In this document: positions 5,757 through 49,590 of the stretch, one piece after another
How positions within the stretch are numbered: position 1 is the stretch's first letter
How the letters are laid out: each line of letters begins with the position of its first letter
Source: Cetorhinus maximus
Taxonomy: Eukaryota
DNA length: 64,000 nucleotides
Direction of reading: 5' to 3'
NCBI RefSeq assembly: GCF_964194155.1
Contig: NC_135893.1
Span: 13,454,001 to 13,518,000 of the forward strand
Made by a program: the position numbers and the translations under genes
The notes under the pieces: model-generated
Database searches by the model: none
Told to the model about the DNA's origin: nothing
The model's input: only the letters and a program-made list of their open reading frames with translations

Positions 5757-8065
5757 GCACTAGTTAGGCCTCATCTGGAGTACTGTGTCCAGTTCCAGGC
5801 ACCATACTTGAGGAAGGACGTGAAGACATTGGAGAGAGTACAGAGGAGATTCACAAGAATGATTCCTGGGATGAAGAACTGTGGCTATGAGGATAGATTG
5901 GAGTGGTTGGGACTATTTTCCTTGGAGAACAGAAGGCTGAGAGGAGACTTGAGGGTTATGGACAGGGTAAATAGTGAGAAACTGTTCTCACTCAAGAGAA
6001 CATCAAGAACTACAGGGCACAGATTCAAAATAATTGGCAAAAGAACATAAGAACTAGGAACAGGAGTAGACCATTTGGCCCCTTGAGCCTGATCTGCCAT
6101 TCAATACAATCACGGCTGATCTTCTTGTGTTTCGATTTCCACATTCCCATCTAACCCTGATAATCTTTGATTCCCTTGCCTAACAAGAATCTATCTACCT
6201 CTGCCTTAAAAATGTCCAATGATCCCGCCTCCACCACCTCCTGAGGCAGAGAGTTTCAAAGTCGCACAACCCTCTGAGAGAAAAAAATTCTCCTCATCTC
6301 TGTCCTAAAAGGGCGACCCCTAATTTTAAAACAGTGCCCCCTAGTTCTGGACTCACCCACAAGAGGAAACATCCTTTCAACATCTACCTTGTCGAGGCCG
6401 TTCAGGATCTTGTATAGTTCAATCAAATCACCCCTCACTCTTCTAAACTCCAGTGGAAACAAGCCCAGTCTGTCCAACCTTTCCTCATAAGACAACTCAC
6501 TCATTCCAGGCATCAATCTAGTAAGCCTCCTTTGAATTGCCTCCAATGCATCCTTCCTTAAATAAGGAAGCCAGAACTGCACACAGTATTTGAGACGCAG
6601 TTTCACCAATGCCCTGTATAACTGAAGCATAACATCCTTATTTTTATGCTCAATCCCTCTCATAATAAAGGATCACATTCCATTAGCCTTCTTAATTACT
6701 TGCTGTACCTGCATACTAACTTTTTGTGACTCATGTACTAGAACACCTAGATCCCTCTACACCTCAGAATTATGCAGCCATTCTCCACTTAAGTAATGCT
6801 CTGCCTTTTCATTCTTCCAGCCAAGGTGAACAACTTCACATTTTCCTATATTAAACTTCATTTGCCAGATCTTTGCCCACTCACTCAACCTATCTATATC
6901 CATCTGCAGCCTCCTCATGTCCTCTTCACAACATGCTTTCCTACCTATCTTTGTGTCAACTGCAAATTTAGCTACCATGTCTTCAATCCCCTCATCTAAG
7001 TCATTGATGTAAATCATAAAAAGTTGAGGCCCCAGTACAGACCCCTGTGGGACGCCACTCGTCACATCCTGCCAATCAGAAAAAGACCTATTTATGCATA
7101 ATCTCTGCTTTCTGCCAGCCAACCAATCTTCTATCCATGCTAATATGTTACCACCTACATGATGTGCTTTTATTTTCCGTAATAATCTTTGATGTGGCAT
7201 CTTATCAAATGCCTTCTGGAAATCCAAGTACTGTACGTCTACAGGCTCCCCTTTATCTACTGCACAGGTTACTTCTTCAAAAAATTCCAATAAATTGGTT
7301 AAACATAATTTTCCTTTCACAAAACCATGCTGACTCTTCCCAGTTGCCTTGAGCTCTTCCAAGTGCCCAGCTATAACCTCCTTAATGATCAATTCTAATA
7401 GCTTCCCCATGACAGACGTCAAGCTAGCTGGCCTAAAGTTTCCTGTTTTCTGCCTACCTCCTTTCTTGAATAGAGGGGTTATATTTGCTGCCTTCCAATC
7501 TGATGTATCCTTTCCAGAATCCAGCGAATTTTGGAAAATTACCAACAGCGCATTGACTACCTCATTAGCCCCTAGGATGTAGTCCATCGGGACCCGGAGA
7601 CTTGCCAACCCGCAGCTCCATCAATTTGCTCAGTATCATTTCCCTAGTGATTTCAATTTCACCAAGATTCTTTCTCCCGTTCACCACCTGATTTGCAGCT
7701 ATTAATGGAATGATTTTTGTATCCTCTATAGTGAACACAGAAACAAAATATTTGTTCACTTCTTCTGCCATTTCCTTATTATCCACTGTCACTCTCTAGA
7801 AGACCAACACTCACTTTACTAACTCTTTTCCTTTTTAGGAGTAAATGTGATGTGAGGAAATTTCTTTTTCACCAGAGGGTGGTGGGAGTTTGGAACAAAC
7901 TTCCTGAAAGGGTGGTGGAGGCAGGTTCGATTGAGGGAATTGGATTGCTACCTGAAAAGAGAGAATGTGCAAGGTAATGGGGATAAGGCAGGGGAGTGGG
8001 ACTAGGCGGAATGCTCTTTCAGACTCGATGGGCCAAATGGCCTCCTTCTGCACTGTAAAGATAGT
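5757..8065 (+). mobile_element. CR1 LINE 3' fragment (host), split at ~6045-7836 by an antisense CR1
   Basis: ORF 5808-6050 RKDVKTLERVQRRFTRMIPGM..RLRGDL; the sequence resumes at ~7838 (gtgaggaaatttcttt..agggtggtgggagtttggaac) and runs into the CR1 3' UTR. Confidence 0.8.
6045..7836 (-). mobile_element. CR1 LINE ORF2 (RT domain to 3' UTR), 5'-truncated
   Basis: ORFs 7565-7792, 6757-7608 (YLDFQKAFDK, GVPQGSVLGP, KFAVDTK) and 6256-6663; the 3' tail ends in ...ttcttatgttct on the minus strand. Confidence 0.92.
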
Positions 8066-10517: not shown

Positions 10518-11800
10518 GCATCTGTTCTGATGACGTTCCTCTGACATGTCCTCCTTCTTCTTTAACTGAGGTTTTCCACCCACGGTCGTTGACAGGGCCC
10601 TCAACCGTGTCCGGCCCATCTCCCGCGCATCTGCCCTCACGCCTTCTCCTCCCTCCCAGAAACATGATAGGGTCCCCCTTGTCCTCACTTATCACCCCAC
10701 CAGCCTCCGCATTCAAAGGATCATCCTCCGCCATTTCCGCCAACTCCAGCATGATGCCGCCACCAAACACATCTTCCCTTCACCCCCCCTGGCAGCATTC
10801 CGTAGGGATCGTTCCCTCCGGGACACCCTGGTCCACTCCTCCATCACCCCCTACTCCTCAACCCCCACCTATGGCACCTCCCCATGCCCACGCAGAAGAT
10901 GCAACACCTGCCCCTTCACTTCCTCTCTCCTCACCGTCCAAGGGCCCAAACACTCCTTTCAAGTGAAGCAGCATTTCACTTGCATTTCCCCTAACTTAGT
11001 CTACTGCATTCGTTGCTCCCAATGCGGTCTCCTCTACATTGGAGAGACCAAACGCAAACTGGGCGACCGCTTTGCAGAACACCTGCGGTCTGTCCGCAAG
11101 AAAGACCCAAACCTCCCTGTCACTTGCCATTTTAATATTCCACCCTGTTCTCTTGCCCACATGTCTGTCCTTGGCTTGCTGCATTGTTCCAGTGAAGCCC
11201 AACGCAAACTGGAGGAACAGCACCTCATCTTCCGACTAGGCACTTTACAGCCTTCTGGGCTGAATATTGAATTCAACAACTTTAGATCTTAAACTCCCTC
11301 CCCTCATCCCCAACCCGTTTCTTCCCCCTCCCTTTTGTTTTTTTCAATAATTTATATAGATTTTTCTTGTCCCACCTATTTCCATTATTTTTAAATCTAC
11401 AACTAATACCTTGTCAATCTTTCCACCCCACCCCCACTAGAGCTGTACCTTGAGTGTCCTGCCTTCCATTCTTAATTAGCACATTCTCTTAGATAATATC
11501 ACCACCTTCAACACCTCTTTGATCCTTTTGTCTGTGACATCTTTTGATTCTCTGCTCCTATCACTGCTTGCTTGTCCCTACAACCACCCCACCCTCAACT
11601 TCTCTCCCCCACCCCACCCCCCACCTTAAACCAGCTTATATTTCACCCCTCTCCTAACTACACTCAGTTCTGTTGAAGGGTCATTGGACTCGAAACGTCA
11701 ACTCTTTTCTTCTCCACCGATGCTGCCAGATCTGCTGAGTTTTTCCAGGTAATTCTGTTTTTGTTTTTGTTTTGGATTTCCAGCATCCGCAGTAGTTTTT
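10518..11800 (+). mobile_element. 5'-truncated Penelope-like element, family A (GIY-YIG end plus pLTR), inserted in a SINE
   Basis: 10-bp TSD tgcttcacta (10508-10517 and 11801-11810). ORF 10963-11292 LVYCIRCSQCGLLYIGETKRKLGDRFAEH is nearly identical to the end of ORF 46532-48058. The host SINE core gttgtaaaaacccaactg|cactaatgtccttcaggga rejoins across it. Confidence 0.93.
11666..11703 (+). ncRNA. Minimal type-I hammerhead ribozyme motif (variant core CUGUUGA) in a Penelope pLTR
   Basis: agtt-CTGTTGA-a-gggtc-attg-gactc-GAAA-cg-TC-aact: helix I agtt/aact, helix II gggtc/gactc, palindromic helix III acgt, GUC cleavage triplet. Confidence 0.7.
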
Positions 11801-11899
11801 TGCTTCACTAATGTCCTTCAGGGAAACCATCCTGCCGCCTTTATCTAGTCTGACCTACATGTGATTCCAGTCCCACACCATGGTTGGCTCTACGATGTC

Positions 11900-23700: not shown

Positions 23701-24411
23701 GATGCCTGCCATGCATGATCATTCTGCTGACACCTAAGATAGATGATTTAAAGGCACAAACAGAAGTAAATGGGTATGATCTAATTGCCATTACAGAAAC
23801 ATGGTTACAGGGTGACCAATACTGGGAGCAGAATATTCAAGGATATTCAACATTTAGGAAGGACAGGCAAAAAGGAAAAGGAGGTGGTGTTGCATTGATG
23901 ATAAGGGATGGGATCAGTACATTAGTAAGGGAGGATCTCAGATCAGAAGAACAAAATGTGAAATCTATTTGGGTGGAGCTAAGAAACAGCAAAGGGCAGC
24001 AAATATTGGTAGGAGTTGTTTATAGGCCACCAAACAGTAGTGGTAGTGCGGGGCATGGTATTACTCAGGAGATTAGGGAAGCATGTAGCATGGGTAATAG
24101 AGTAATCATGGGTGACTTCAATCTGCATATAGGCTGGGTAAATCTAATGAGCACATGCTGTGGAGGACAAGTTTCTGGAGTGTGTTAGGGATGTTTTTCT
24201 AGAGCAGTATGTTGAGAAACTAGAGAACGGGCTATTTTAGATCTAGTTTTATGTAATGAAAAAGGGTTAATTAATAATGTTGTTGTAAAAGAACTTTTAG
24301 GGATGAGTGAGCATAATATGATAGAATTTGACATTTTGTTTGAAAGTGAGGTAGTTCAATCTGAAGCCAGGGAGTTAAATTTGAACAAAGGAAATTATGA
24401 AGGTATGAGGG

Positions 24412-38000: not shown

Positions 38001-39100
38001 CAGGTGAGGTGAGAGTGACCGCCTTAGACATCAAGGCAGCATTTGACCCAGTATGGCATCAAGGAGCCTTTGCAAAACTGGAGTCAATGGGTATCAGGGA
38101 GAAACCTCTCCGTTGGTTGGAGTCATACCTAGCACAAAAAAGATGGTCATGGTTGTTGGTGGTTAATCAGCTCAGTTCCAGGACATCGCTGCAGGAGTTC
38201 CTCAGGGTAGTGTCCTAGCCCAACCATCTTCAGCTGCTTCATCAATGACCTTCCTTCAATCATAAGGTCAGAAGTGGGGATGTTCACTGATATTTGCACA
38301 ATGTTCAGCACCATTCACGACCCTTCAGATACTAAAGCAATCCATGTCCAAGTGCAGAAAGACCTGGACAATATCCAGGCTTGGGCTGACAAGTGGCAAG
38401 TAACACTCATGCCACACAAGTGCCAGGCAATGGCCATCTCCAACAAGAGAGAGTCTAACCATCATCCCTTGACATTCAATGGCATTGCCATCACTGAATC
38501 CCCCACTATCAACATAACAGGGGGTTACTATTCACCAAAACTGAACTGGACTAGCCACGTAAATACTGTGGCTACAAGAGCAGGTCAGAGGCTCAGAATC
38601 CTGCAGTGAGCAACTCACCTCCTGACCACCACCCCCCTCCCACCCCGCCCAAAAGCCTGTACACCATCTGCCTTGTAGACTTGGTCCTACCACCAAGTCA
38701 AGACTGTAATGGAATACTCTCAACTGGATGAGTGCAGCTCCAAAAACACTCAAGAAGCTTGACACTATCCAGGACAAAGCAGCCCACTTGATTGACACCC
38801 CACCCACAAATATTCACTCTCTCCACCAACGATGCACAGGGCAGCAGGTACATGGGAACACCACCACCTGCAAGCCACTCACCATCCTGACTTGGAAATA
38901 TATTGATGTCCCTTCTCGATCGCTGGGTCAAAATCCTGGAACTACCCCCCCCCAAACAGCACTGTGGGTGTACCTACACCACATGACTGCAGCGGTTTAA
39001 GAAGGCAAACACCACCACCTTCTCAAGGGCAATTAGGGATGGGCAATAAACGCTGGCCTAGCCAGCCACGCCCACAAACCATGAACGAATATAAAAAAAA
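38001..39100 (+). mobile_element. Second CR1/L2-clade LINE family, RT to 3' end
   Basis: VTALDIKAAFDPVWHQG, DLDNIQAWADKWQV, TLKKLDTIQDKAA; tail ends in an A-run at ~39100. Confidence 0.88.
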
Positions 39101-40083
39101 GACACCTTGTATCCTCCTCACAACTTGCTCTCGTAACTATCTTTGTATTGTCAGCAAATTTGGCTACATTACAGTCAGTTCCTTCATCCAACTCATTAAT
39201 ATAGATCATAAATAGTTGAGATTCCAGCACTGATCCCTGTGGCACTCTACTAGTTACAGTTTGCCATCCTAAAAATGACCAATTTATCCTAACTCTCTGT
39301 TTCCTTTTTGTTAGCCAGTCCTCTATACATGCTAATATATCGCCCCCAACACGGGAAGTTCTTATCTTGTGTAGTCACCTTTTATATGGCACCTTACTGA
39401 GTGCCTTTTGGAAATCCAAATACATGACACCTACTGGTTCTCCCTTTTCCACCCTGTTTTTACATCCTCAAAGAACTCTAATAAATTTGTCATACACAAG
39501 TTCCCTTTCACAAAACCATGTTGATTCTGCCTGATAGTATTATGATTTTCTAAATGTCCTACCACCACCTCTTTAATAATAGATTCTGGAATTTTCCCAA
39601 TAACAGATGTTAGGCTAACTGGTCTACAGTTTCCTACTTTCTGTCTCCCTCCTTTCTTAAACAGTGATGTTACATTTGTGATTCAGTCGGGATTCAACAT
39701 TAGAAGCTTTGCAAGATTTAAAACTTATTTGCAAAGTATAGGAATTTGTAGACTCTAAGACTCATGAGGAATCATGAGTTTATCTTCCCCTTTCTCTCTA
39801 CCTCTGTTTCTGCCCTTTCTACTCCATCTCCTCCTCCCACACTGTCCCCCTTCTTTGTTCAATATTTGGACTGAAAGATAGCATTGTTGACAGGGACTGC
39901 TGAAGTGTCAGTTTCAGCTATGAACTCAAGTATTTATATGTTGTTTGAAGCCATGTCCTTATTTTTGCACAGCCTAACACCAACTGAGCTTAATTAAATA
40001 TGGGCCTTCTGACACACAAAGACAAGTGTTCAGTTGAAGGTAGAGTGGTTAAGCTTGTGATGGGTTTAGGGAAGGAATTCCAG

Positions 40084-41560: not shown

Positions 41561-42528
41561 CAGTTGCTTGGCTGTAGAGAACTCGAGTATTGCTGAAAAG
41601 AGAGACATGTTGCTGAAGCTTTTCATCTTGCCCTCATCAGGACAGACGCAAGAATGCCAAATTTCAAACGATCACAACAATTTATAGTACGGGAGAAAAG
41701 GATGCTGATTGGTTGGCAAGTTGACTCTGATTGGCTGAGGCATTGTTATGGAGAAAGCAATGGGAAACTATAGGCTCGCAAGCTCCCAGGTAATTCAGAA
41801 AAGACACAAGGCTTGAGCATATTCCTTTTGTTTGCAGAGAACAAATCCCTGCATATGAATGTATGTCACTTCTAGTAAGCAGAAATGAACCACGTTATGA
41901 GTTCAACTGATTATCTTGAATTGGTTGTTAGTGTAGGTATTAGCACATTCATAGTTCTTAAGCAAGTGCTGCCCAATCGCGGAATCACATCTAACAGTAG
42001 ACGTTTTGTTTTGGGCTTTGCAAGCACGGGCTGATTGAGTACGGTCCATACCCCGCCAAACAACTATACAAACCATACTCAACCAACCTGCAATCGCAAA
42101 ACCCAAGACAAAATGTTTACCATTAGATGTGATTCTGCGATAGGGTAGAACTTACTGAACAATCCTGAATGTGCTAAAAGCTACACTAACAGCCAATTTA
42201 AGATAATGAGTCAACTCATTATGTAACTCATTTACACTTGCTAGAAGCAACATACATTCATATGTGTGGACTCATTCTCTGCAAACTAAAGGAATATGTT
42301 CAAGCCTTGCATTTTTTTTGAATTAGCAGGGAGCTTGGGGAGCCTATAATTCCCAATTGCTTTCTCCATGGCAATGCTTTTGCCAATCAGAGTTGACTTG
42401 CCAGTCAATCAGCACCCTTTTCTCCTGTACTATAAATTGTTGTGATCGTTTGAAATTTGACATTCTTGCATTTATCCTGATGAGTATAAGATGAAAAGCT
42501 TTGGCAACATGTTTCTCTTTTCAGCAAC
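41561..42528. mobile_element. Penelope family B-related foldback element (two inverted 3' ends, no RT)
   Basis: 41589-~42045 is the diverged reverse complement of ~42077-42528; both arms contain the GIY-YIG C-terminal remnant and a hammerhead motif; TSD aattaaa (41554-60 and 42529-35). Confidence 0.88.
41610..41646 (-). ncRNA. Minimal hammerhead ribozyme motif (sibling at 42471-42507, +)
   Basis: Minus strand reads tctgtc-CTGATGA-gggcaagat-GAAA-agct-TC-agcaa; the core is intact but the helices are eroded. Confidence 0.6.
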
Positions 42529-43884
42529 AATTAAATCTGTGTCCCAGAAAAGAGGGGGGCAATAAACTAAGTACATTTGATGGGAAAAATCATCCTGTTG
42601 CTACTTACAGACAACTGTAAATTAATATTTCAAATCTAGCTCTATTTACAAATTGCAAATCAGCTCCATGCTATAATTTTTAATCCAAAAAGTACTTTTA
42701 TTTCCAAAAGCTGTAATTACAATAGATCACAAACACGTGGTAAAGTTTTTTCATGTGTTTAAAGTTCCCTGACCCTATGTAAGTGAATTTGTACTGTTAT
42801 GCAAATTTGCACTGTCACTTACAGCAGGATTATCTGTGATTATGTCAGTTTACATCTGTAAATAGTTTGGCTGTAATGACATTTTTATAGTTTTTTAAAG
42901 TTACCTTTTACTGAGTCTGAAAATTATCAGAAGAAAAATATGAATTTTCATTACCTAAATGACCTGAAATGCAAATAAGATTAATCTCTTTGTTTATTTA
43001 AATGACATAGATGGTTGAATGAAGTTTCATATTCAGCATTAGCACAAGAAATGATAGTGTTATCTTATTATTCAAAAGTGTGACTGCACAGGAAGTTTTA
43101 AAAACCCCAATATACAGGACAATAAATGACCATATTCAGATTAGTGGGCAGTATACTGGACACAGGAGAAAATAAGGTTACACAGCATTCTTTTCCTTTT
43201 TCCAAGTCAGAAAATTTAAATGTCAGTGCCTCAACAAGAGAAAAAAATCAGCATCTCCCTTAACCCCCGGCACCCATCCACCCCAAGAAGTGAGAAAATC
43301 TATTCTATTGAACTGTTTACAAACAGGCACATCTCTGAGGAAACAGGCAGCAGAGAATTACAGTACCTCAGATCCAGGAGTAATTAGAAGGTATGTTGTG
43401 CTAATCGATCAATGGTGTCTTGGTTTCTCAGCTTCTTTTGAGCTGGCGGCCATAAGGCAAGAACTTAATTCAAGAAGAAAAGACAACTGTGCTCCTGCAC
43501 TTTTACCCTCTGTAAATAGAAATGTACAGAGGAAAATGTATGGATTGAATTCAAGCAGAGGATTTGTTCCATGTTTTAAAGGTAGTGTTAGTGGCCTATT
43601 GCAATTGCATAGTGGTCTATTGCAATTGAATGTCGACCAAATCAGACAAAGCCAACTTTTCATACACAAGCTAAAATAATATTAGGTTAGTTCTTTCTTC
43701 TGTCACTTTGCAAAGATTTGCAAGCCTGTAGGAATCTAAAAAAATCCAACCTTCCTTTAGTTATCATTCTGTTTTAAATTGTGTGTAAAACACTTTTAAT
43801 AGCAGATCAGTTCTTTACATTTAACTATCAGTTAGAGAAATCCTATTTATTCTTGATCACAGTGTTTACTTGTCACTGATGCAG

Positions 43885-44585
43885 GTGATCAGCCTTGTAT
43901 AAGTGATGGAGGAGATCAGCACTGCACAGTCACTGATGAAGGAGGTCAGGATTATATGGTCACTGTTGGGAGAGATCCGCATTGTAAGATCACTGTTGGA
44001 GAGATCAACATTGTGTGATCACTGTTGGAAGAGATCAGCATTTTATAGTCACTTTTGGAGGAGACCAACATTGTATGATCACTGTTTGAGGAGATCAGCA
44101 TTGTATTGTCAAAACTGAGAAGAGGAGGAGATCAGTGTTGCATGGACACTTTTGGAGGAGGTCAGCATTTTATTGTAACTGTTGGAAGAGATCAGCATTG
44201 TATGGTCACTGTTGGAGGAGATCAGTATTGTATGGTCATTGTTGGAAGAGATCCACATTGTATTATCATCGTTGGAGGAGATCAACATCGTATGATCACT
44301 GTTGGAAGAGATTAGCATTTTATAGTCACTGTTGGAGGAGACCAACATTGTATGATCACTCTGAGGAGATCAGCATTGTATTGTCAAAAATGAGAAGATC
44401 AACATTGTATGATCACTGTTGGAAGACATCAGTATTGTATGATCACTGTTAAGATCAGTATTGTATGGTCCCTGTTGAGATATTATATGGTCACTGTTGA
44501 GGAGATCAACATCGTATGGTCAGTGTTACATTAGATTAGCATTGTATGCTCACTGTTAGAGAAGACTAGCATTATTTGATCAGTG
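43885..44585. repeat. 30-bp minisatellite (gatcagcattgtatggtcactgttggagga)n
   Basis: About 23 contiguous degenerate units with no unique spacers. Confidence 0.92.
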
Positions 44586-46457
44586 TCTAAGAAAGAATAT
44601 CCAAGTAAATTTCCTGACTGATTTTCTTCTGTTATTGTCTTTCCTGAAGTTTTTGACTGCCTCAACGAGATACTGTTCCACTAATACTGATCATCATCTA
44701 CTAACACTCAAGTGCCCAGTAATTGCATGGGAACTTTGACCATGGGTCTTAGCAGGCTATTCAACTATAGCCAGGATCAGAATCAAGCCAGATTCCGTCT
44801 TCATTTGTCATGAAACAGTGCACTTTGCAGTATGGATTCTACTGTTTTCCTGGCCAAAATTCTCTAATTGGACATGGATCAGGGATAGAATCTATGACAT
44901 TGCTATCCTGTATATCTTAGGTGAATATACATGAATAAACTCACTGAGCTTTTGGAGGAGTTGATAATATATTTTAATTGGTATGTCTCCATTACGATTA
45001 GATTGTCATCATTGTTAGTTGTAATCACACTTCTGTCCATTGATCTCGGAATCTGTACCCTTCTATACATAGTCCTGCATCTTGGAGGTTCAGTAATGTT
45101 GCACATTGATAGCTCAGCATATTGCATATGGACTGCAAGAATGTAAATTGGTAACCACAATTACCCACACTTGAGAAACTCAGTTTCATTGCATCTCAAT
45201 GGGGAGGTATCAGTCAAAAGCCGTGTGATTCTCTGATAGATTAGAAGTCCTGGGTTACTCCTTTACACCACCTAAGAGCTGCTATCGGAGCAGAATTGCC
45301 AATCAACCAGGGAGGGAGTATGTTGTAGGGCACCACAACGAAGAGGGAACAAAACATCTTTCAGTATGAATCATGAACAAATACCAGGTAGGTTTATTTG
45401 TATTTGTCATTATTCAGCTTCTGACTTTTTCGTTGATTTCCCTATAACCATTTGAATTAATGAAACCATTAACTTACATCCAACTTTGTAATTCACCCAT
45501 ATAAGAATGTCCATGAGTGAGTGTTTTTTGAGTTGTCAAAACAGACAGATGGGTTTGTAAGGATGCTGTGTGCTACATGATATGATTATTAACTAATTTT
45601 AAAGCAGAATGCTTAATATATTGTAGCTTTAAAACTGTCAACTCATGTGTTGTATTGAATAAATTCTAAAATTATTTATCCAGTTTAAAAACATTAAAAA
45701 CCATTTTAAAAACATGCCCTTTAACACTCAATGTGCAATGATGAGCTTTGAACTCATCCAAAATTAACCATTCATTTAATGAAATGTTTACTTAAATTTT
45801 AACTTGTTGAAATAGGTCCTGAAAAGGAATTGAATACCACCCTGCATAAATCAGAGGCTTGTCACCAAAGGAGGGAAAGAGCAGAAATAAAGTAGAGAAA
45901 GAGGCACTGGAAATGGAGAGATAAATGTGTCAAGACCACTGATTTATAGTTTCACTGGAAAATAAGCTGAATCATGTGAAGATCTAGCAAAGATCCTGAC
46001 TCTAATTAAAAATTACATCTGGCATTTTAGATAGCCATAAAACAGTAGCCTTAATGGTGTTTGCATTATATACAAAAACAGAATTACCTGGAAAAACTCA
46101 GCAGGTCTGGCAGCATCGGCGGAGAAGAAATCAGTTAACGTTTCGAGCCTTCATGGCCCTTCGGCAGAACTGAAGCATAGTTAGAAGAAGGGAGAAATAT
46201 AAATTGGTTTAAGGTGGGTGGGGGGGCGGGGGGCGGGGAGACACACATTGAGGGTGTGGTGATTGTGGAGATGAGCAGATAATCAAAAGATGTCACAGAC
46301 AAAAGGGTCAAAGAGGTGTCGAAGGTGGTGACATTTGTCTGAGAAAAGTGCTAATTAAGAATGGAAGACAGGATATTCAAAGTACAGCTCTAGTGGGGGT
46401 GGGGTGGAAAGACTAACAAGGTTTTAGTTTAGATTTAAAAATAATGGAAATAGGTAG

Positions 46458-48058
46458 CGACCCAACCTCGGACGGCCCGCTTCTACCTCCTACCCAAAAT
46501 CCACAAACAGAACTGTCCTGGCAGACCGATCGTGTCAGCCTGTTCCTGCCCCACGGAACTCATTTCTCGTTATCTTGACTCCCTTCTCTCTCCCCTTGTC
46601 CAGTCCCTTCCCACCTACATCCGTGATTCCTCTGACACCTTACGTCACATCAACAATTTCCAGTTCCCTGGCCCCAACCGCTTCCTCTTCACCATGGATG
46701 TCCAATCTCTCTACACCTCCATCCCCCACCAGGATGGTCTGAGGGCCCTTAGCTTCTTCCTTGGACAGAGGCCCCAAAAATCCCCATCCACCACTACTCT
46801 CCTCCGTCTGGCTGAACTTGTTCTCACACTGAACAATTTCTCCTTTAACTCCTCTCACTTCCTCCAAATAAAAGGTGTGGCTATGGGTACCCGCATGGGC
46901 CCCAGCTTTGCCTGTCTCTTTATGGGGTATGTGGAACATTCCTTGTTCCAGTCCTACTCCGGCCCCCTCCCACAACTCTTTCTCCGGTACATCGATGATT
47001 ACTTCGGTGCTGCTTCATGCTCTCGTCGGGACCTGGAAAAATTTATTAATTTTGCTTCCAATCTCCACCCCTCCATCATCTTCACATGGTCCATCTCTGA
47101 CACTTCTCTTCCCTTCCTTGACCTCTCTGTCTCAATTTCTGATGATAGACTGTCCACCAATATCCATTACAAGCCTACCGACTCCCACAGCTACCTCGAC
47201 TACAGCTCCTCACACCCCGCTTCTTGTAAAGACTCCATCCCATTCTCTCAGTTCCTTCGCCTCCGTCGCATCTGTTCTGATGACGCTACCTTCAAAAACA
47301 GCTCCTCTGACATGTCCTCCTTCTTCCTTAACCGAGGTTTTCCATCCACGGTCGTTGACAGGGCCCTCAACCGTGTCCGGCCCATATCCCGCGCATCCTC
47401 CCTCACGCCTTCTCCTCCTTCCCAGAAACATGATAGGGTCCCCCTTGTCCTCACTTATCACCCCACCAGCCTCCGCATTCAAAGGATCATCCTCCGCCAT
47501 TTCCGCCAACTCCAGCATGATGCCACCACCAAACACATCTTCCCTTCACCCCCCCTGACGGCATTCCGTAGGGATCGTTCCCTCCGGGACACCCTGGTTC
47601 ACTCCTCCATCACCCCCTACTCCTCAACCCCCACTTATGGCACCTCCCCATGCCCACGCAGAAGATGCAACACCTGCCCCTTCACTTCCTCTCTCCTCAC
47701 CGTCCAAGGGCCCAAACACTCCTTTCAAGTGAAGCAGCATTTCACTTGCATTTCCCCTAACTTAGTCTACTGTATTCGTTGCTCCCAATGCGGTCTCCTC
47801 TACATTGGAGAGACCAAACGCAAACTGGGCGACCGTTTTGCGGAACACCTGCGGTCTGTCCGCAAGAAAGACCCAAACCTCCCTGTCGCTTGCCATTTTA
47901 ACACTCCACCCTGTTCTCTTGCCCACATGTCTGTCCTTGGCTTGCTGCATTGTTCCAGTGAAGCCCAACGCAAACTGGAGGAACAGCACCTCATCTTCCG
48001 ACTAGGCACTTTACAGCCTTCTGGGCTGAATATTGAATTCAACAACTTTAGATCTTAA
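46458..48058 (+). CDS. Penelope-like polyprotein: reverse transcriptase plus GIY-YIG endonuclease (N-terminally truncated, no internal stops)
   Basis: RFYLLPKIHK..GRPIVS, TMDVQSLYTSIP, GVAMGTRMGP, RYIDD, LPFLDL, YKPTDSHSYLDY.S.HP, C..RCNTC, LVYCIRC..LYIGET. The frame is open from the inversion junction, upstream of the GTG start in the ORF track. Confidence 0.93.
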
Positions 48059-48427
48059 ACTCCCCCTCCCCCCATCCCCACCCCGTTTCTTCCCCCCCCC
48101 CCCCACCTTTTTTTTTCAATAATTTATATAGATTCTTCTTTCCCCACCTATTTCCATTATTTTTAAATCTAAACTAAAACCTTGTTAGTCTTTCCACCCC
48201 ACCCCCACTAGAGCTGTACTTTGAATATCCTGTCTTCCATTCTTAATTAGCACTTTTCTCAGACAAATGTCACCACCTTCGACACCTCTTTGACCCTTTT
48301 GTCTGTGACATCTTTTGATTACCTGCTCATCTCCACAATCACCACACCCTCAATGTGTGTCTCCCCCCCCCCCACCCCCCCACCCACCTTAAACCAATTT
48401 ATATTTCTCCCTTCTTCTAACTATGCT

Positions 48428-48470
48428 TCAGTTCTGCCGAAGGGCCATGAAGGCTCGAAACGTTAACTGA
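48428..48470 (+). ncRNA. Minimal type-I hammerhead ribozyme motif (variant core CUGCCGA); identical inverted copy at 46131-46173
   Basis: tcagtt-CTGCCGA-a-gggcc-atgaa-ggctc-GAAA-cg-TT-aactga: 6-bp helix I, 5-bp helix II, palindromic helix III. Confidence 0.7.
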
Positions 48471-49289
48471 TTTCTTCTCCGCCGATGCTGCCAGACCTGC
48501 TGAGTTTTTCCAGGTAATTCTGTTTTTGTTTTGGATTTCCAGCATCCGCAGTAGCTTTTAGCTTTTTGTTTTTATCTTTGCATTATATACGATGTCTAAT
48601 AATATCACAAAAGCATTGCAAAGTGATTCATATCTTTAAATTACTTTTGGAGTGCAGTGACTGTTGTTATGTAACCAAATTCTAAACCTAAGACTGTCAG
48701 GTTGTTTCTCTGATTGTTATTTTGCTGTAGCTGGAGATTAAATTTTCCCCAATCTAGTCAGCATGTGAAATTTTCCAATTCTACACTCAATAAGTATACT
48801 ATTTTGACACGCGGAAAAGGCCTCATAATTCCAGCTCAGAATTCTAAAAGCATAATGTTTCACTCAGGGTGTTTGCTGCCAAGATATTGCATTCAGAGTT
48901 TGTTTAACAAAATGGCAATTATAGAAGTTTGAAACCAGTTTTAAAGCTAGCTGAGAATTTAACACCAGCATGCAGCAGCCAAATATTTTATCTGACCATC
49001 CTAATTTGAATGGAAACTAGGGCTTAAGCACCCTTTAAAAACATTCAACGTTGTCAAACCCCAGTCGCTATAAATTCTTAAAACAAAAGATATGTACAAA
49101 AAAATCCTTTGTATTCAGATGGCACAAGTATTGTATCATTTTTGTACCACTTGGATCATGTTGTATGGACATTGTATTGTAAGTTTCACTGCCAATTCAT
49201 ATTTTTGGTGCACTCAGTACATCATCCTGAAACAGCAAGATTTTGAAATAATTAGGAAATGCTTATATCAATTTTTTTTCAAGTGAGAC

Positions 49290-49590
49290 TAGTGAAAGGG
49301 TTTTGATAGGTTATACAGGGAGAAATTGTTTCCACTAGCAGAAGGGTCATAAACCAGACACAAAAGTATCAAAGGAGAAGATGAGGGGAATGTTTTTAGC
49401 AGCAAGTTGTTATGATCTGGAATGCATGATGGGAGTAGATTCACTGGTAACTTTCAAAAGGGAATTGGATAAAAATTTGCAAAGGAAAAAATTCTAAGGT
49501 TGTGGGGAAAGAACATGGACTAATTGGATAGCTCATTCAAACAGCACAAGTGTGATGAGCCAAATGGCATCCTTCTGTACTGATGATTAT
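49290..49590 (+). mobile_element. CR1 3' fragment
   Basis: gaaagggttttgatagg..gagaaattgtttccacta..ctttcaaaagggaattggat. Confidence 0.75.

Follow-up and report, generated by a model that had tools for sequence, protein, structure and literature searches.

Endonuclease-bearing (EN+) Penelope-like elements (PLEs) are the closest described relatives of the element considered here, and an inverted pseudo-long terminal repeat (pLTR), a one-sided tail and a target-site duplication (TSD) are already published for this group (PMC3846280, PMC8557442, PMC11167929). The insertion Pen2a_Av combines an inverted pLTR with a TSD of 9 bp, and a tail of 31 bp is described as 'optionally present' at one inverted end; an empty allele is reported for it and self-priming was proposed (PMC3846280). 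The formation of PLE inverted repeats and of the one-sided tail has been named an open question (PMC8557442). For Poseidon of Anolis carolinensis (PAc), both target strands are cleaved and extended in vitro, two reverse transcription starts bracket the tail, and a dimer is predicted (PMC11167929). Minimal hammerheads occur in pLTRs, including opposite-strand pairs 100–700 bp apart (PMC4209133), and twin and dual priming have been defined for the L1 retrotransposon (PMC2837659). Here, a PLE insertion at positions 46060–48590 of a 64,000-nucleotide stretch of the Cetorhinus maximus genome (contig NC_135893.1, positions 13,454,001 to 13,518,000; termed the window, in whose numbering coordinates are given) is analyzed together with its genomic relatives. 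Head-to-head insertions of the family follow a strict rule of one tail each, which probably reflects priming by both ends of a single staggered cut.

The window element is a 5ʹ-truncated, head-to-head insertion of an endonuclease-bearing Penelope-like retrotransposon. From left to right, it is organized as follows, with ORF denoting open reading frame and RT reverse transcriptase.

46060..46073, + strand: left TSD copy, 14 bp; its last 2 bases (AC) also fit the element template, and the empty site of related organisms B and C holds a single copy.
46074..46455, − strand: inverted, tail-less arm (a copy of the 3ʹ pLTR) with its 3ʹ end outward, belonging to the 384-nt match to 48146–48529.
46131..46173, − strand: predicted minimal type-I hammerhead-like motif of the inverted arm, identical to the right copy at 48428–48470; coordinates by mirror mapping.
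46456..46460, no strand: 5-nt filler AGCGA at the head-to-head junction, fitting the natural continuation of neither arm (compared with natural copies L108 and L109).
46461..48058, + strand: 5ʹ-truncated ORF, family residues 387–917, with RT core (YIDD), CX4CxxC linker and GIY-YIG endonuclease; open, without the family start codon.
48059..48527, + strand: 3ʹ pLTR region, of which 48146–48527 is duplicated in the inverted arm.
48428..48470, + strand: predicted minimal type-I hammerhead-like motif of the right arm, with helices in the minimum free energy and centroid folds.
48528..48576, + strand: tail, 47–49 nt, at the right end only; in tandem copies it continues into the 5ʹ end of the ORF.
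48577..48590, + strand: right TSD copy; its first 4 bases (TTTG) also fit element read-through sequence.

The outline of the insertion had been anticipated by an earlier reading of the window (the original prediction), and its measurements hold. The clean 14-bp TSD, TTTGCATTATATAC, is exact in both copies (46060–46073 and 48577–48590). The inverted copy, put at about 385 bp with roughly one substitution plus G/C-run variation, extends over 384 nt: positions 46072–46455 are the reverse complement of 48146–48529 with 3 substitutions and no indels, one substitution lying at 46279/48322 and two within the G/C run. At 48322, the right arm has a private C that none of 157 other copies shares. The shortfall of the inverted arm, put at about 50 nt, is 49 nt measured to 48576, or 47 nt if the two bases shared with the TSD are counted as element. 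Target-template microhomology in this copy amounts to 4 bases at the tailed end and 2 at the tail-less end.

The one-sided tail is general in the family. Copies were collected from the 4.0-Gb genome by exact patterns. Set M derives from 100 listed matches of a window 36-mer (of 5002; first part of contig C1), which gave 76 loci in addition to the window. Set Y represents a younger subfamily and was taken from 100 listed matches (of 2288) as all 27 apparent head-to-head pairs plus 13 lone matches, and is thus enriched in pairs. Both sets require an exact 36-mer and so are biased to young copies. Ends were located with a family-specific anchor, which one M locus lacked and by which 46 loci were single. 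Head-to-head pairs with a TSD account for 40 of the 77 loci in M (window included) and 30 of the 40 in Y, and every one of these 70 pairs (40/40 and 30/30) has exactly one tailed and one tail-less end. As a maximal match, the TSD ranges from 12 to 18 bp, being 14 bp in 33 pairs and 13–16 bp in 67. Five larger palindromes retrieved with another pattern (L118–L122) likewise have one tail wherever both outer ends are visible.

The two kinds of end differ in precision. The position of the tailed end is tight (standard deviation [SD] about 2 nt in both sets), while the tail-less end spans about 7 nt in M (SD 1.6) and is broader in Y (SD 4.4). The offset between the ends has a median of 46 nt in M (range 39.5–52) and lies between 42 and 57.5 nt in Y. 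A 5-nt insertion in the younger subfamily has moved the tail-less end only partly, and broadened it. The arm end points, tabulated for these sampled loci along the lines that the original prediction had proposed, are not random; the asymmetry is a strict rule on the tail, not a fixed coordinate.

The family shares with Pen2a_Av and the EN+ PLE unit, as these are described in PMC3846280 and PMC8557442, an ORF joining RT to a C-terminal GIY-YIG domain, a head-to-head inverted 5ʹ-truncated copy, a tail at one end, a short TSD and partial tandems that read through into the ORF. It differs in the length of the tail (47–49 nt here, 30–40 nt there) and of the TSD (about 14 bp here, 8–10 bp in the rotifer). 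Moreover, the published descriptions have the tail as 'optional' or 'often' one-sided, whereas here it is one-sided without exception among the 70 pairs. No paper stating a strict one-tail rule or paired priming for PLEs was found, which does not establish its absence from print.

The two arms of an insertion appear to derive from one template, because they share private variants. A tract variant common to both window arms is present in none of 150 other copies; rare variants are likewise common to both arms of L134, L145 and L162, and private deletions to both arms of L118, L119, L121 and L122. The partner is the uniquely nearest arm in 11 of 18 pairs of set M and 12 of 22 of set Y; in the remaining pairs, other copies are just as near. 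The C-rich tract is unequal between the arms of some older pairs. In L118–L122 (contigs C2, C3 and C6), each arm continues past the tail and into a pLTR upstream of it, so that the template, a tandem or circular RNA, must have exceeded one unit; L120 contains two intact 917-residue ORFs of identical sequence.

Arm lengths are related as well. Of 62 pairs, 26 have arms that end no more than 30 nt apart; of the others, 25 have a longer tail-less arm and 11 a longer tailed arm (p 0.03). In the 25 pairs with a longer tail-less arm, neither arm is therefore a subset of its partner. Equal 5ʹ ends occur in 14 of the 49 pairs with an arm longer than 200 nt, against 1.7 expected (0/10000 permutations).

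Both outer ends also bear on priming. Microhomology between target and template was compared with a null from 3000 simulations in which the TSD could be lengthened by chance matches. At the tailed end, it averages 1.71 bases in the 38 M pairs against a null of 0.76 (0/3000) and 1.92 in the 24 Y pairs against 0.76 (2/3000). Single-ended copies supply a further test of each end by itself. Of the 46 singles, 35 were scored; the 11 set aside had an additional short arm, an inversion within the copy or a 5ʹ end that could not be resolved. A TSD is present at the 5ʹ junction of 10 of 21 tail-less singles and 2 of 14 tailed singles, compared with 24 of 1190 in a mismatched-locus null. The inner zone can therefore prime alone. 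That the internal site is primed second, as originally predicted, finds no support in these copies, in which TSDs are commoner on tail-less than on tailed singles.

The two element ends face outward and each abuts a TSD copy, from which we infer that antisense element sequence directly follows each target 3ʹ end, as in target-primed reverse transcription (TPRT) on a staggered cut. Probably, a single element RNA is reverse transcribed from both 3ʹ ends of a cut staggered by about 14 nt, with priming sites some 46 nt apart. The GIY-YIG domain would cut the two strands about 14 nt apart, leaving 3ʹ overhangs. One 3ʹ end would then prime just past the tail, aided by 1–4 paired bases, and the other in the U-rich zone about 46 nt upstream. 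Both RTs would copy the same sequence toward the RNA 5ʹ end, such that the trailing RT must displace the leading complementary DNA (cDNA). The two cDNA 3ʹ ends would finally be joined head to head, in the window copy with 5 filler bases, and gaps filled. A convoy of two RTs would produce equal arms if the trailing enzyme meets the leading one or if both reach the end of the RNA, together with a bias to longer tail-less arms. The 25 pairs with neither arm nested in its partner, together with the TSD-flanked tail-less singles, argue for true priming at the inner zone, and the two RT starts of PAc in vitro (PMC11167929) lend support by analogy. The both-strand, twin-priming-like reaction of the original prediction thus survives the end-point test as the best reading, shorn of its fixed inner site and its order of priming.

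Several observations count against paired priming. The tail-less end shows no more microhomology than chance in M (0.82 vs 0.78, 38 pairs) and a weak excess in Y (1.29 vs 0.77, 24 pairs, 49/3000), and all 10 TSD-flanked tail-less singles belong to the older subfamily (set M), as opposed to none of 6 young ones. The inner site is not the defined U-rich site once supposed: beyond the spread given above, in at least 11 of the 70 pairs, the tail-less end falls upstream of that zone (by 15–45 nt for five of the Y pairs), and another analysis places the end of L018 there as a twelfth. A rigid ruler between the ends is rejected, the end positions being uncorrelated (rho 0.02) and the offset uncorrelated with TSD length. 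In vitro, the start site is reported not to differ between top and bottom strands (PMC11167929). Furthermore, the excess of equal arms is predicted equally well by the main rival, fold-back with later deletion of the center, and either fold-back or gene conversion would likewise give arms with private variants in common. Under fold-back, a single TPRT event would start at the tail site; the cDNA would snap back, copy itself, stop before the tail and be end-joined to the second target end, with unequal arms produced by later asymmetric deletion of the center. Self-priming has been proposed for palindromic junctions (PMC3846280), and both the variable tail-less end and the restriction of strong microhomology to the tailed end would follow. 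Yet a secondary deletion is then required in each of the 25 pairs with a longer tail-less arm, which include copies without a mismatch over 2.2–3.2 kb (L140, L144 and L145); deletion does not predict the 25:11 bias, and the TSDs on tail-less singles and the two in vitro start sites (PMC11167929) are left unexplained. Fold-back appears unlikely.

Two further schemes dispense with a shared reaction or with inner priming. Under dual priming, as proposed for L1 (PMC2837659), each target end would be served by a separate RNA-protein complex with its own RNA, both RNAs stemming from one source locus. No strand would have to be displaced on a shared RNA, and single-ended copies indicate that each site can prime alone, but independent choice predicts pairs with two tails or none about half the time and 0 of 70 were seen; the strictness of the one-tail rule excludes independent site choice. 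Shared private deletions and equal 5ʹ ends at many different positions also point to one molecule, making dual priming very unlikely. Alternatively, the tail-less end could arise without priming, through endonuclease cleavage of a DNA intermediate near the tail, as suggested in PMC8557442. Recognition by the D. virilis endonuclease depends on the tail sequence (cited in PMC11167929), and the tail-less end, with its weak microhomology, would fit. This resolution scheme is nonetheless extremely improbable given that RT starts map to both tail boundaries in PMC11167929 and that interior tail copies are intact in both arms of L118–L121.

It is conceivable, though we lean somewhat against it, that PLE integration is an obligate paired reaction, in which an RT-endonuclease dimer on one RNA cuts the two strands about 14 nt apart and two polymerases set out in convoy from sites about 46 nt apart, the one behind displacing the cDNA of the one in front. 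If true, a single arrangement would account for the tail at one end only, the duplicated inverted arm, the surplus of equal arms and the bias to longer tail-less arms, and the inner site would usually prime first.

Compared with PAc (PMC11167929), the family probably has in common two start sites that bracket the tail downstream of a pLTR hammerhead (here the predicted, hammerhead-like motif), cutting and extension of both strands, and AT-rich targets. The tail lies upstream of the first ATG here and inside the ORF in PAc, and the start zones are U-rich here as opposed to an AC-rich stem-loop. Additionally, the window family has the CX2-5CxxC linker that Penelope/Poseidon lack, and in the main text of PMC11167929 the two sites are not assigned one to each target strand. 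The thousands of young copies present here provide constraints that can be tested in the PAc system, namely the 14-nt stagger, the 70/70 one-tail rule, the single template and the unequal microhomology. Genome-writing work could also profit from a polymerase able to write RNA at either end of a cut that it makes itself. The window locus itself is an ordinary truncated copy, and its value lies in its family.

L1 twin priming (PMC2837659) is similar in that two target 3ʹ ends prime on one RNA and an inverted junction lies within the TSD. L1 fragments are non-overlapping and separated by an internal deletion, whereas the arms of the present family are duplicates of one sequence, with the inner site restricted to a zone near the 3ʹ end. 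An L1-type product is accordingly rejected for the window, where the arms overlap by 384 nt. Only one of 77 loci looked non-overlapping: in L063, the inverted arm consists of about 43 nt of tail alone joined to a tail-less body, like L1 twin priming.

Each arm carries the predicted hammerhead-like motif, in a minimal type-I layout. It consists of helix I (TCAGTT/AACTGA), a core (CTGCCGA...GAAAC) and helix II (GGGCC/GGCTC). The canonical hammerhead core is CUGANGA; here core position 6 is C, not A. CTGCCGA lies at 48434–48440 and 46161–46167, and the younger subfamily has CTGCTGA, also with C at position 6. The window hammerhead-like 36-mer has 5002 exact matches in the genome and the younger-subfamily variant 2288, compared with 4 for the A form. 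An Rfam search gave no hammerhead match and only a chance match to a small nucleolar RNA (E 1.3), and no paper linking an A6C hammerhead with PLEs was found. The z-score of 48420–48576 (+0.27) gives no support for special RNA folding near the two start sites. In many mini-palindromes (L038, L051, L053, L057, L060, L065, L072, L081 and others), both arms end 75–97 nt upstream of the anchor. This places the arm ends near the hammerhead 5ʹ edge (equivalent to about window 48420–48440), which is possibly the 5ʹ end of the RNA. Read-through from tail to ORF is represented by 334 exact junctions in the genome.

The reading frame of the window copy is only part of that of the family. Originally described as an uninterrupted RT and GIY-YIG frame, it is indeed open over 534 codons (46454–48058), but it is 5ʹ-truncated: full-length copies encode 917 residues, of which the first 386 are gone here, and the frame starts at residue 387. 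Its first ATG (46694) falls within the RT domain, and it lacks the DKG motif found at residue 321 of full-length copies. With the N-terminal 386 residues lost, the window copy is likely non-autonomous. Pfam matches appear in the order RVT_1 (E 3e-7, passing the cut-off) and GIY-YIG (E 2.5e-4; 21.7 bits, just missing the cut-off of 22.6). Under the motif definitions of PMC8557442, the frame contains VYCIRCSQCGLLYIG plus downstream histidines, and CPRRRCNTC corresponds to the CX2-5CxxC linker between RT and endonuclease. A single ORF with RT and C-terminal GIY-YIG, direct and inverted pLTRs, partial tandems, a tail at one end and a TSD place the family among EN+ PLEs, and the CX4CxxC linker points to the Neptune/Nematis type. 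A search for full-length members, also proposed earlier, yielded 14 intact 917-residue ORFs among natural copies fetched at read-through sites. A host-gene role is unsupported, since 49 other open frames of at least 105 residues gave transposon domains only, in a scan that would miss short exons.

The insertion is real and postdates the splits from two related organisms. Contigs from sequencing run X1, which represents one individual and may be the assembly's own sample, span the left junction into the inverted arm (45400–46091) and the right junction (48555–49300) with no differences, at depths of 82 and 93, respectively. These contigs confirm the inverted end and rule out an assembly artifact at the insertion's outer junctions, the earlier concern. 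The empty site, which the original prediction had suggested looking for in other individuals, was found in the related organisms: one contig each in organism B (X5) and organism C (X10) joins 46059 to 48577 through a single 14-mer. Flanks differ at 33 of 1384 sites from B and at 19 of 660 (left flank) from C, as against 3 of 384 between the arms. Because flank divergence exceeds arm divergence, the insertion occurred after the splits from B and C.

Within its family, the window copy is not among the youngest and is older than a sister subfamily, judging from substitutions. It differs by 0.55–1.13% from 19 longer ORF copies (the short fragment L096 excluded) and has 5 private substitutions in 1598 nt, compared with 1–2 in seven sister-subfamily copies, which is at odds with the 'very young' of the original prediction. 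The two ORFs of the L120 palindrome differ at none of 2754 sites. The family was probably recently active, in line with one part of the claim that it is active or polymorphic; as to polymorphism, the filled allele alone appears among the joints listed for X1.

Other parts of the window hold related and unrelated repeats. An older, single-ended copy of the same family, 91% identical, lies at 10537–11805, with a GIY-YIG frame at 10570–11289. At 41590–42527, an old palindrome of 940 nt with arms 80% identical carries a hammerhead-like motif of the CTGATGA type close to its ends, and one side is longer by about 30 bases. It likely represents the same layout in another Penelope-like family. A degenerate minisatellite with a period near 30–60 nt occupies 43860–44590, 1.5 kb left of the insertion. 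Further transposon remnants, with matches to DDE_Tnp_4, RVT_1 and Exo_endo_phos, are located at 932–1621, 6760–7620, 23703–24185 and 38211–39374.

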